Of a stretch of DNA of 55,533 bases, positions 1 to 50,450 are shown in pieces. Both the position numbers and the translations under genes were made by a program. Under the pieces are notes generated by a model. The model searched no databases and was not told the DNA's origin. It saw nothing but the letters and a program-made list of their open reading frames with translations. Source of the stretch: an uncultured Candidatus Saccharibacteria bacterium (GTDB taxonomy: Bacteria; Patescibacteriota; Minisyncoccia; Phycocordibacterales; Zambryskibacteraceae); the NCBI GenBank assembly GCA_964582295.1, contig CAZOQP010000003.1, forward strand, positions 1 to 55,533, written 5' to 3'. The stretch's first letter is position 1; each line of letters opens with the position of its first letter.

Positions 1-4
1 AAAT

Positions 5-49
5 CAGCAGATTTTTATGCGTACTCTTTTCGTCATCACCCCGAGCGAC
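5..49 (-). repeat. 45-nt block identical to 23444-23488; 5' part of a putative structured RNA, truncated by the window edge
   Basis: Exact match cagcagatttttatgcgtactcttttcgtcatcaccccgagcgac at both sites, same orientation, each just downstream of a minus-strand gene. Confidence 0.9.
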
Positions 50-83
50 TGCTGTTTGAAAAATGCCGCTACCCGAACGTTTT

Positions 84-23157: not shown

Positions 23158-23197
23158 TGTCGCACTACAATACCAGAAAGCTTTATTTTTGCAAAAT

Positions 23198-23226
23198 GAA
23201 AAGCCCCGGAACCAAGTTCCGGGGCT
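23198..23226 (-). terminator. Intrinsic terminator
   Basis: agccccggaac-caa-gttccggggct followed by a T-run on the minus strand. Confidence 0.75.
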
Positions 23227-23284: not shown

Positions 23285-23301
23285 AGGAATCCCTATCTTA
23301 C

Positions 23302-23326
23302 TCTACGTAGGACAGTCCTACGTAGA
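23302..23326. repeat. Palindrome related to 50212-50244
   Basis: tctacgtaggac-a-gtcctacgtaga. Confidence 0.85.
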
Positions 23327-23334
23327 TTTTGCCT

Positions 23335-23490
23335 AAGACCCGGGGCACGCCCCCTGCCCGCCATTGCCTGCGGCATCAGGCGCTGGCAGGCGGGCGGCGC
23401 GAGGGAACCGTTGCTGAATGGTTACATTCAGACGGTGAGCAAGCAGCAGATTTTTATGCGTACTCTTTTCGTCATCACCCCGAGCGACCT
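23335..23490 (-). ncRNA. Putative structured non-coding RNA (GGTGATGACG family) with an inserted GC-rich hairpin repeat
   Basis: Closing stem GCTCGGGGTG/TGCCCCGGGT, internal hairpins, 45-nt identity with 5-49, terminator downstream. Confidence 0.5.
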
Positions 23491-24867
23491 TTATATACTC
23501 CTCAAAAAATCAATATTCTCCTGGAATTGTGCAGCTTTCACCAGAACTTGGTTACCATAAAAAGTGTTCGCAGGTTTTTTGTTGTCACAGGCGCGGCCGG
23601 AGTAGTAGCGGCAGGAAGCATTGCGCTCCGCTGTGTATGTGCCTCCTGCCGCACCCAAGTCTTTAAGATAAATAGCGGTTGCAATAATGGCATGCTGTGC
23701 GTTCCACGGATTAGGCTCTTTCACTCCGACCGCGCTCGCAATGCGTGTTCTGAAAATCTCCCAAGTGGAAGGAATGAATTGCGACGGCCCCATAGCACCT
23801 CCGAAACCACGTCCCACCACATACACAGCTCCAAGCGGACAGGAAACCGGTGTCATAGACCACTCCCTCCCGACTGCGCTCGTTATCCTCTGAAAAGGCA
23901 CGGTATCGCGCGGCGCTTTCATCACTTGCTGGAAGGGATTACCAGTGTTCTTCCCCACCCCATCTCCTGTATCCAAATTTTTCACATAACAAGACCCCAC
24001 ATTTTTCCCGAGGTCCGATTCCTGCGAAAGGATGGCAAGAATAAGAGCCGCGCGCACGCCAGTTTTCTGCGAAGCAACGTTGGCATATTCAAGCGCGGTT
24101 CCGAAAGGAATACCTTCTGAATCTCTCAATCCGAAAAGTGCTGCACGGATCTGCTCTGCTTTTGCCTGCTTTTGCGCAAGGAAAGAATCCTGCACGGCTT
24201 TAGTTTGATCTACCACCGCCAAGAGCTGTTTTTTCTCGGCTTCGTTTTTGGCCACTTCTTTTTTCTTGGTCTCTATCACATATTTCGCATCCTCTTCCTG
24301 GTCTTTTTTCTGGGCTAGCGCCTGCTTTTCTTTTTCAGTTTCAGCTTTGGCTTCCCTTATGGAAAAGAAGAGCACCTGCAGATCTTTCTGTATAGCAGAG
24401 AAAGAATCAAAATCTGCGAAAAAATCAGAGAAGTCCTCATCCGAAAGAACGGCTTCCGCAAGGCTATATGAATCAAGCTCCCGTGTGCGCCTTATAAGTT
24501 CTGCCAAAGAAACCCTTCCCCTTTCAATTCGCGTATTGAGGGTGTTTATTTTCTGGGTTTTCTGGTTTATCTCTCCCGAAATGGTTTTGATAGTGAGATT
24601 TTTCTGCCTCAAAACGGCTTCCGCTTGGTTTATCTGCGCCGTGAGGAGGGAGATGTCTCCTGTTATGGTTTTCTGCTGCTGCTTCAGACCGTCTATGGTT
24701 TTCTCTACTTCTTCTATTTCACGGAGTGTCTGGTCGTATTCGGCCTGAAGAGCCGCTCTTTCGGAAGGTGAAAGCTCTTGCGCAAAAAGTTCCCCCGTAG
24801 GCGCCAAAGCCCCCAAAATGACACCCAATATCAAAAAAACAGATATGAGCGCACGAAAAATACTCAT
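23491..24867 (-). CDS. Secreted coiled-coil protein with a C-terminal lytic transglycosylase-like (lysozyme-fold) domain
   Basis: Signal peptide, long PcsB/CwlO-like coiled coil, ILSQESDLG, GAMGPSQFIPSTW, NPWN. Confidence 0.85.
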   Translation of the reverse strand: MSIFRALISVFLILGVILGALAPTGELFAQELSPSERAALQAEYDQTLREIEEVEKTIDGLKQQQKTITGDISLLTAQINQAEAVLRQKNLTIKTISGEINQKTQKINTLNTRIERGRVSLAELIRRTRELDSYSLAEAVLSDEDFSDFFADFDSFSAIQKDLQVLFFSIREAKAETEKEKQALAQKKDQEEDAKYVIETKKKEVAKNEAEKKQLLAVVDQTKAVQDSFLAQKQAKAEQIRAALFGLRDSEGIPFGTALEYANVASQKTGVRAALILAILSQESDLGKNVGSCYVKNLDTGDGVGKNTGNPFQQVMKAPRDTVPFQRITSAVGREWSMTPVSCPLGAVYVVGRGFGGAMGPSQFIPSTWEIFRTRIASAVGVKEPNPWNAQHAIIATAIYLKDLGAAGGTYTAERNASCRYYSGRACDNKKPANTFYGNQVLVKAAQFQENIDFLRSI

Positions 24868-24892
24868 GTGCACCTATTATACCAAAACGAGC

Positions 24893-50051: not shown

Positions 50052-50060
50052 ACTCCGCTC

Positions 50061-50186
50061 GCCGTGCCTTTCGGCGTACACGCATAACCCTGGCCAGCGC
50101 CAGGGTTTGCTGTTACTCGGCTCGCCAGTTTGCTTACGCAAACACCATGCTGGCTTCGCCTCCGCACGTACGGCGAAAGGCACGGC
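50061..50186. repeat. Multi-hairpin element with a 13-bp terminal inverted repeat (REP/MITE-like)
   Basis: gccgtgcctttcg ... cgaaaggcacggc enclosing two inner hairpins. Confidence 0.65.
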
Positions 50187-50211
50187 TCGCTCCAAAGTTA
50201 AGCGACAACGA

Positions 50212-50244
50212 AAAATCTCCGTAGGACTGTCCTACGGAGATTTT
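50212..50244. repeat. Palindrome related to 23302-23326
   Basis: aaaatctccgtaggac-t-gtcctacggagatttt. Confidence 0.85.
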
Positions 50245-50450
50245 GATTAGGTGATGACGCCAGAGCGGAATAGCTAGTGATTGCTAAGCTTCAACACCAC
50301 CCCGCCAAACAGGAGCCCGGCGGCAACAACGTGTAAACAACAAACGAGTAAAGCCGGCTTTTCTTTTATTCCCGCCCAAAAATCCAGGCCGATAAAAATA
50401 AAAGCTAAGCAGAGGACTGTGTTTCCGTACATTGTATGCCCCGAGCAGAG
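50245..50450 (+). ncRNA. Putative ~200-nt rod-shaped ncRNA (6S-like; GGTGATGACG family)
   Basis: Nested pairings GCGGAA/TTCCGT, TGCTAAGCTT/AAGCTAAGCA, AGCCCGGC/GCCGGCT around a central open region; GGAGCC and CCCGCC motifs. Confidence 0.5.

Follow-up and report, generated by a model that had tools for sequence, protein, structure and literature searches.

The window analysed here is a stretch of 55,533 nucleotides that begins with the first base of contig C3, within a genome (G000) of 567,816 bases assembled into seven contigs. On its minus strand a peptidoglycan-hydrolase-like gene (23491-24873) is followed by rpmE (start codon 23157-23155), and the spacer between the two holds the repeat that is the subject of this analysis (Table 1). 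A preliminary description had placed a structured element here, had pointed out that its first 45 nt recur at the start of the window, and had proposed a dispersed family, read either as a multicopy non-coding RNA loosely recalling 6S RNA or as a non-autonomous structured element. The 45-nt identity is real: on the minus strand, positions 5-49 and 23446-23490 agree at 45 of 45 nt. The element is likewise multicopy, with ten places in the genome matching its 5' part in a sequence search, and this, together with the fact that the 3' arm missing from the window-start copy opens contig C7, rules out an artefact of the contig end. Within the window, GGTGATGACG occurs three times against an expectation of 0.06. 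Searching the whole window against Rfam at the gathering threshold returned two tRNAs only, and when the E-value was relaxed up to 10 the rpmE-side copy, as well as a canonical copy with its neighbouring repeat, gave chance-level matches only; ARAGORN did not find a tmRNA. The family, which we call family A, is real and structured, and uncatalogued in the sense of having no Rfam match.

Table 1. Positions of the repeat modules and signals in the window, with what each one represents.
Feature	Position	Strand	Remarks
Canonical family A copy, 5' part	1..48	-	TCGCTC at 48-43, closing-stem 5' arm and beginning of the hairpin with the UGCU loop; truncated at the contig start
Outer 20-nt stem, 5' arm	54..73	-	encloses the window-start copy; complement on contig C7; rpsP stop at 86-84
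Intrinsic terminator	23193..23226	-	closes a 3' UTR of ~300 nt, just ahead of the rpmE promoter and gene
Hairpin E	23301..23330	not assigned	palindromic repeat at 9 genome loci; GTAG...CTAC; two-way terminator-like
Module D	23332..23355	-	separate repeat at 5 genome loci; gives the 3' half of the closing stem first proposed
GC-rich hairpin in place of P3 and 3' arm	23356..23395	-	unique to this copy
Remnant, 5' side of the conserved 16-mer (P3)	23396..23406	-	sequence replaced after the first 10 letters of the 16-mer
Extra hairpin inserted in the junction	23407..23436	-	otherwise only in the sister copy, C2:175617-175747
P2 5' arm and CUGCUG loop	23435..23462	-	P2 3' arm deleted; pairs marked as broken in the model alignment
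Closing-stem (P1) 5' arm	23463..23481	-	same as in canonical copies; 3' partner missing at this locus
TCGCTC bracket hexamer	23482..23487	-	3 nt past the hydrolase gene's stop codon, TAA at 23493-23491
Claimed third copy, not a family member	50250..50450	+	10-mer only; unique in the genome

The canonical unit of family A is about 106 nt long and runs from a TCGCTC hexamer through one arm of a perfect 19-bp closing stem (P1) into a three-way junction, then through the other arm to a second TCGCTC; its two ends read TCGCTCGGGG and CCCCTCGCTC. Two hairpins extend from the junction. P2 has 10 bp, a bulged U and the loop UGCU; P3 has 4 bp and the loop CGUC, and lies within a 16-mer that is nearly invariant, CTCGCGCCGTCGCGCT. 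The predicted folding energy of a canonical copy is -50 kcal/mol (z = -8.1). A small peptide was considered and rejected, as the longest frame opened by the ATG in the 5' arm has just 10 codons. There are twelve members in the genome (568 kb), comprising six intact copies that score 80.4 bits, three diverged copies found by our own covariance model, one copy split between contigs C3 and C7, and two degenerate copies. They stand singly rather than in tandem, dispersed behind housekeeping genes (rpsP, rpmG, mreB). Six of the copies are 97-100% identical from hexamer to hexamer, this identity stops exactly at TCGCTC, and the sequences on either side are unrelated; the unit has recently been multiplied as a block in this genome.

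The copy at the start of the window, which amounts to half of a canonical unit, is a true member of the family, and its position explains where the contig ends. As C7:1-60 carries the 3' arm of this copy together with the complement of its outer-stem arm, contigs C3 and C7 must abut, the assembly having broken inside the copy with the loss of some 25 nt of repeat between the two. Family A repeats thus break assembly and represent a practical source of gaps.

The copy ahead of rpmE (23332-23487) is of a different kind and keeps only the 5' third of the unit. When the genome is searched with the 19-nt arm, the reverse complement follows about 70 nt after the 5' arms, and the rpmE-side copy is the sole exception, being the one of nine such arms to have no partner. 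That partner, which for this 5' arm is CTCTTTTCGTCATCACCCC elsewhere in the family, is missing from the locus and has taken the 3' TCGCTC with it, leaving only the 5' hexamer at 23487-23482. Beyond the unique hairpin that occupies the place of the 3' arm, module D and then hairpin E follow. A sister copy at C2:175650-175747 is 96% identical over 98 nt, and the first ~100 nt are common to the two. Against R1, our covariance model of the family core, and with filters off, the rpmE-side copy scores 19.4 bits compared with 60-85 bits, or 30-85 bits at the widest, for real members, with P2 broken and P3 missing. Despite this failure of the core, its complete identity to canonical copies over 45 nt and its similarity to the sister mark it as a derivative of family A, and we are confident both that this family of dispersed hairpin repeats is real and that the stretch is one of its degenerate members.

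Part of the secondary structure that had been proposed for this copy is upheld. Its minimum-energy fold (-78.9 kcal/mol, z = -3.9) contains both of the hairpins named at the outset, ACCGTCTGAATG/CATTCAGCAACGGT and CGCGCC/GGCGTG. The pairing of GAGUA with UGCUC, suggested as a loop pseudoknot, is present in the same fold as an ordinary nested helix. A closing helix does form, as had been supposed; however, the particular pairing put forward for it, GCTCGGGGTG with TGCCCCGGGT, is peculiar to this rearranged copy, and since its 3' half is module D we regard it as an accident of the mosaic. The terminator scan places an intrinsic terminator at 23226-23202, where one had been expected 3' of the copy. 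Taken together, the rpmE-side copy is probably an inert relic that is passively transcribed within the 3' UTR of the hydrolase gene.

The third copy, previously placed at 50245-50450, does not belong to the family. It shares only a 10-mer (50250-50259), R1 finds nothing there, and the segment 50250-50570 has no other copy in the genome. The opposite strand at this locus carries a hydrophobic open reading frame of 52 aa (50274-50432, minus strand), which reads like a two-helix membrane peptide and is followed by hairpin E; a search of 25 relatives did not find it. The 200 nt ahead of the locus are made up of other repeats, namely a long hairpin directly past the stop codon of the RNase J gene and another hairpin E (50207-50245). 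The long hairpin (50056-50200) is nested and begins 4 nt past that stop, and a copy of it with 84% identity lies at C2:175437-175609, adjoining the sister of the rpmE-side copy. Its inner hairpin is flanked by letters as in P2 of family A, a weak likeness to which R1 gives 15.3 bits, and the long hairpin may be a distant relative of the family.

The two smaller modules recur in their own right. Hairpin E is a palindrome of about 30 nt with A- and T-runs on its flanks, found in the window both next to module D and ahead of the third locus, and it resembles a REP of the GTAG type as well as a two-way terminator. Module D reads GGGGCGTGCCCCGGGTCTTAG, and at three of its five loci it is preceded by a different hairpin, also bracketed by TCGCTC, which begins 3-6 nt past a stop codon.

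The structure of family A is conserved well beyond this genome. It had been anticipated that a genuine family would have covarying stems, and strong Watson-Crick covariation is indeed seen both in the core and in alignments within the genus. Across 50 distinct core sequences 98.7% of the cells are paired and 13 of the 14 pairs show double changes; none of 500 shuffled alignments was as good, and a slid control was also far off. The in-genus alignment (A5), which includes the closing stem, covers 38 pairs, 24 of them with double changes, and has 91.4% of its cells paired, with a covariation score that 0 of 500 shuffles reached. The UGCU and CGUC loops, the bulged U and the letters of the junction are near-constant across copies, so that the interior core is the conserved part of the unit and the terminal repeats are the variable part. 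A constant core combined with stems that change freely across the class points to a specific machinery that recognises it, and such near-invariant loops are equally expected of a functional RNA. The distribution of mismatches bears on the nature of the pairing. G-U pairs account for just 4 of the 687 paired cells in the core stems, and the closing-stem mismatches in 49 elements consist of 9 sense G.U, 16 sense A.C and 24 transversions. These mismatches show no preference for wobble on either strand, which is as expected if the pairing is in DNA or the copies are recent, and not as expected of an RNA helix under selection.

Family A is widespread among the closest relatives and patchy further out. 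A search at the DNA level detected it in 11 of 41 relatives, the present genome counted. With R1, which models a core of 70 nt and was built from 16 sequences, 73 of 86 genomes of the same family are positive, including 53 of the 62 with a completeness of 90% or more, and representing 17 of 17 genera, with 1-16 copies per positive genome and many of the matches at contig ends. One of the 73 positives is an unpublished genome (G051), whose locus (L050) is also one row of alignment A3 and one of the 49 elements; none of our claims rests on it alone. In a sample of the class the distribution becomes patchy, with 20 of 151 genomes positive (the present one included) and up to 19 copies in a genome, and one genome of a different family gives an R1 score of 75 bits, a level otherwise typical of the genus itself. 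A pattern scan of one genome per species listed 80 of at least 120 matches, and 22 of those listed score at least 44 bits. Eighteen of these 22 listed matches come from records titled Patescibacteria, Parcubacteria, Paceibacterota, Nomurabacteria, Minisyncoccia or Saccharibacteria, the other four are titled just "bacterium", and named taxa outside the CPR do not occur among them. Thirteen pattern matches on viral contigs reached at best 26 bits with R1 and provide no convincing phage carrier, and an exact 36-mer from the canonical 5' part had no matches in metagenome contigs. A full-text literature search turned up no account of repeats of this kind from Patescibacteria or Parcubacteria.

The main rival to the mobile-DNA reading proposed below is that family A is a cis-acting RNA element of 3' UTRs and operon spacers, its long perfect stem and its conserved loops being recognised in the mRNA and serving, for instance, as a site for RNase III or other processing, as a 3'-end stabiliser or as a binding site for an RNA-binding protein, with mobility being just the route by which it was delivered. 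The placement of the copies speaks for this. The counts of strand and distance that follow use our own crude longest-ORF calls. Copies within the genus start 1-5 nt past a same-strand stop codon. The motif TCGCT[CT] lies 1-5 nt past the stop in 11 of 605 ORFs of the genome, where a hairpin module nearly always follows, and occurs elsewhere within the first 40 nt after the stop in just seven more. Among 49 elements from many genomes, 29 lie on the same strand as the upstream ORF, 17 lie on the opposite strand, and for three no upstream ORF was called. The distance from the end of the ORF to the copy is 15 nt or less in 19 of the 29 that share its strand. Two further genomes (G147 and G184) contribute 32 copies, divided into 19 same-strand and 13 opposite, and the pooled figures (48 same-strand, 30 opposite, n = 78 with a called upstream ORF) amount to a modest sense bias. 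Conserved loops and a conserved junction held by covarying stems would suit an RNA ligand, and the rpmE-side copy does lie within a long 3' UTR closed by a real terminator. However, the 30 opposite-strand copies sit poorly with a function in the transcript, more so as many of those in G147 are antisense at a fixed distance past the stop codon, inside an outer palindrome whose ends supply TAG in both directions. The scarcity of G-U pairs and the absence of a wobble preference in the closing stem also weigh against it, as do the lack of a U-tract after canonical copies, the differing presence of the element at the same genes in sister genomes and the 13 of 86 related genomes that have none. We judge a cis-acting RNA to be unlikely, although it is the likeliest of the alternatives. 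If the unit does act in RNA, a lineage about which little is understood would carry a 3'-UTR element that is widespread within it.

Comparison of the same sites between genomes reveals considerable turnover. The spacer between rpsP and the gene for a KH protein holds family A inside an outer stem in the present genome (G000) and a diverged family A with different stem arms, again between TCGCTC hexamers, in G004. In G002 the same TCGCTC is followed by a different hairpin, G003 has a hairpin whose loop contains TCGCTC, and G001 has a plain terminator; in G005 the gene order of the region is different. The spacer between the hydrolase gene and rpmE is empty in G005, at 55 nt, and in G001-G004 contains an unrelated non-coding insert of ~430 nt with its own promoter-like and terminator-like signals. 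At the mreB and comM sites the content differs in every genome compared. Copy number and location vary between close relatives, and a copy is often found nested within the loop of another hairpin repeat.

This turnover also counts against a second alternative, in which family A is a non-selfish host DNA site, a folded or palindromic target for a protein involved in chromosome organisation, replication or repair. There is precedent for such a role, since IHF and gyrase bind BIMEs in E. coli, and strict Watson-Crick covariation with invariant loop letters, occurrence in both orientations and wide retention in very small genomes would all be expected of it. Yet copy numbers range from 0 to 19 among relatives, with the element missing altogether from 13 of 86 genomes, positions are not conserved, and a burst of identical copies is the mark of a spreading element rather than of a fixed set of sites, so that we consider this reading very unlikely.

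The remaining alternative, a free-standing small RNA gene family of the 6S kind or another, draws on the stable folds of both the rpmE-side and the canonical copy and on the terminator downstream of the former, but is highly improbable: neither copy has a promoter-like site on the element strand, an element beginning 3 nt past a stop codon leaves no room for one, the family is multicopy in both orientations with 30 of 78 copies antisense and G-U pairs near-absent, and the rpmE-side copy lacks the conserved core. The suggested likeness to 6S RNA fares no better, as Rfam gives no match to 6S or any other family at E-values up to 10, the central region is a multi-hairpin junction rather than a bubble resembling an open promoter, and twelve copies in one genome contrast with a single-copy gene.

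We propose instead that family A is DNA that moves. The burst of identical copies with sharp ends, the patchy but wide spread, the turnover of copies and sites, the occurrence in both orientations and the Watson-Crick covariation are together best fitted by a mobile DNA hairpin, and the "non-autonomous structured element" of the preliminary description is upheld to the extent that this is a multicopy, structure-conserving family outside Rfam. In the mechanism that we envisage, the unit would fold as single-stranded DNA, an enzyme acting in trans would recognise the conserved loops and junction, and insertion would take place 3' of a TCGCTC hexamer, following the logic of IS200/IS605 and REP-RAYT elements; copies would then be carried passively in 3' UTRs with no promoter of their own. 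The choice of target is suggested by the left-flank TCGCTC being repeated at the right end and by the reuse of this hexamer by different hairpin modules, although TCGCTC may be either a target or an end of the element itself. The account as a whole, that the rpmE-side stretch is a decayed and rearranged copy of a dispersed palindromic repeat and that its family is non-autonomous mobile DNA of the REP or MITE kind, appears probable to us, whereas for the narrower proposition that family A is selfish DNA moved via a single-stranded hairpin we see the chances as about even. Against the mobile reading, the tight placement behind stop codons could also be compatible with a role at the RNA level. 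If the repeats are mobile, they could be used to follow genome dynamics and horizontal exchange among Patescibacteria that have not been cultivated, and they would be a source of false "structured RNA" calls in RNA-motif screens.

Single-stranded transposition is expected to leave a replication-strand bias. Sense copies lie on the leading strand, as defined by GC skew, in 10 of 12 cases in the present genome, which is suggestive, but the distribution in G147 and G184 (19 leading versus 13 lagging) did not reproduce this, a point against such a mechanism.

Candidates for the moving enzyme are at hand in the form of Y1 (HUH) transposase genes of the REP-associated type, which are found in the present genome and in 61 of 86 related ones, with up to nine per genome. 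The two copies here (C5:18253-18930 and C1:64143-64796; L257 and L258) encode Y1/RAYT-like proteins of about 220 aa that pass the Pfam threshold, and in NCBIfam they match best the model for REP-associated tyrosine transposase, at 44-46 bits, below the cut-off of 80. Both genes are bracketed by a hairpin or direct repeat of their own, different in each case and not family A, and among the matches listed for the 86 related genomes, with coordinates compared by eye, family A was never found next to a Y1 gene. The Y1 transposase as mover is accordingly unsupported: it is present in 54 of 73 genomes with family A and in 7 of 13 without, and G008 has 13 copies of the repeat with no Y1 match.

Comparison with established systems places family A closest to bacterial MITEs and to REP/BIME/REPIN-RAYT elements. 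Bacterial MITEs of a similar kind include Correia/CREE, RUP and ERIC. Family A resembles such elements in its length of about 100 nt, its perfect 19-bp terminal inverted repeats, the direct repeats at its ends, the absence of an ORF, its bursts of identical copies and its co-transcription with neighbouring genes. It differs in being flanked by a constant TCGCTC rather than by a variable target duplication, and in having a conserved interior and variable termini, which is the reverse of the typical MITE arrangement. A parent insertion sequence with the same ends was not found in the genome, a search with the 19-mer at up to three mismatches yielding short copies only. The non-autonomous derivatives of IS200/IS605 (PATEs) carry their hairpins in subterminal positions and lack a long terminal inverted repeat; what they share with family A is a fixed short left-flank sequence repeated at the right end, which fits target-specific insertion without true duplication, and the recognition of imperfect hairpins that contain a bulge or mismatch.

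Two DNA sites of other kinds were considered and rejected. Integron attC sites have the core motifs R''/R', RYYYAAC and GTTRRRY, and belong to cassette arrays with an integrase nearby; the ends of family A lack these motifs, and the copies are dispersed behind housekeeping genes. The letters CGCATAA resemble the XerC arm of dif, and beyond them the rest misfits a dif/Xer-like site.

REPs, as described in PMC3733652, are simple hairpins of 20-40 nt with one end tagged GTAG or CGTC, often in more than 100 copies. Elements of the REP/BIME/REPIN-RAYT group and family A have in common that they are intergenic, non-coding hairpins of varying copy number which form mosaics with other repeats and are hypothesised to move as single-stranded DNA (PMC3733652), and RAYT-like genes occur in the same genomes as family A. 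Measured against that description of REPs (PMC3733652), however, family A is larger, at ~106 nt, has a three-way junction, is present in at most 19 copies in any one genome and is untagged at its ends, CGUC here forming a loop; and unlike in REPIN-RAYT systems, it does not flank the RAYT-like genes. Rickettsia palindromic elements, named in PMC3733652, are another instance of palindromic repeats that persist in reduced genomes, but they are known for in-frame insertion into genes, of which family A provides one doubtful case, an ORF that runs through a copy. TIGR arrays, as defined in PMC12045711, consist of tandem units in which an edge repeat, a spacer of 9 nt, a loop repeat and a second spacer follow one another, and adjoin a gene with a Nop domain (TIGR-Tas); by this definition (PMC12045711) the single and dispersed copies of family A do not qualify. 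A box C/D motif or K-turn based on GUGAUGA was also discarded, as that segment is fully paired in the canonical closing stem and has other letters in relatives.

A more far-reaching interpretation, which we offer tentatively and rate as possible rather than likely, is that family A and its TCGCTC-bracketed sister modules represent an unrecognised kind of mobile element of ultra-small bacteria. Such an element would be a gene-less DNA hairpin whose three-way-junction tip is recognised by machinery encoded elsewhere, possibly a host enzyme, and whose insertion would be precise almost to the nucleotide, either just past a stop codon or within the loop of an existing hairpin. If this were true, genomes of about 0.5 Mb would be accumulating stacks of nested hairpins, and the 75-bit core in a distant family would reflect horizontal spread, for which no phage carrier has been seen so far. 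Genomes this small are expected to have shed their repeats. Here, by contrast, some twelve copies of one hairpin family and several sister modules fill the scarce non-coding bases behind essential genes.

Other hairpins of the same genomes show related features. Two copies of family A in G000 adjoin an imperfect palindrome of about 200 nt, "family B" (C1:53565-53770 and C2:40560-40770; L011 and L022), whose variable outer stem is of the same kind and ends in TTTTTCAMAC, and in G005 (L023) a family A unit sits in the tip of a palindrome of the family B type. Hairpins past rpsP (L070) and mreB (L075) in G003, and likewise at L061, have a near-identical tip of ~28 nt on wholly different stems. 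Finally, the ~430-nt insert upstream of rpmE in G001-G004 (L061, L062, L063, L065) is conserved, with a promoter of TTGACA/TATAAT type and a terminator-like end; it has no Rfam match and no DNA match in G000, and looks like an uncatalogued structured RNA gene.
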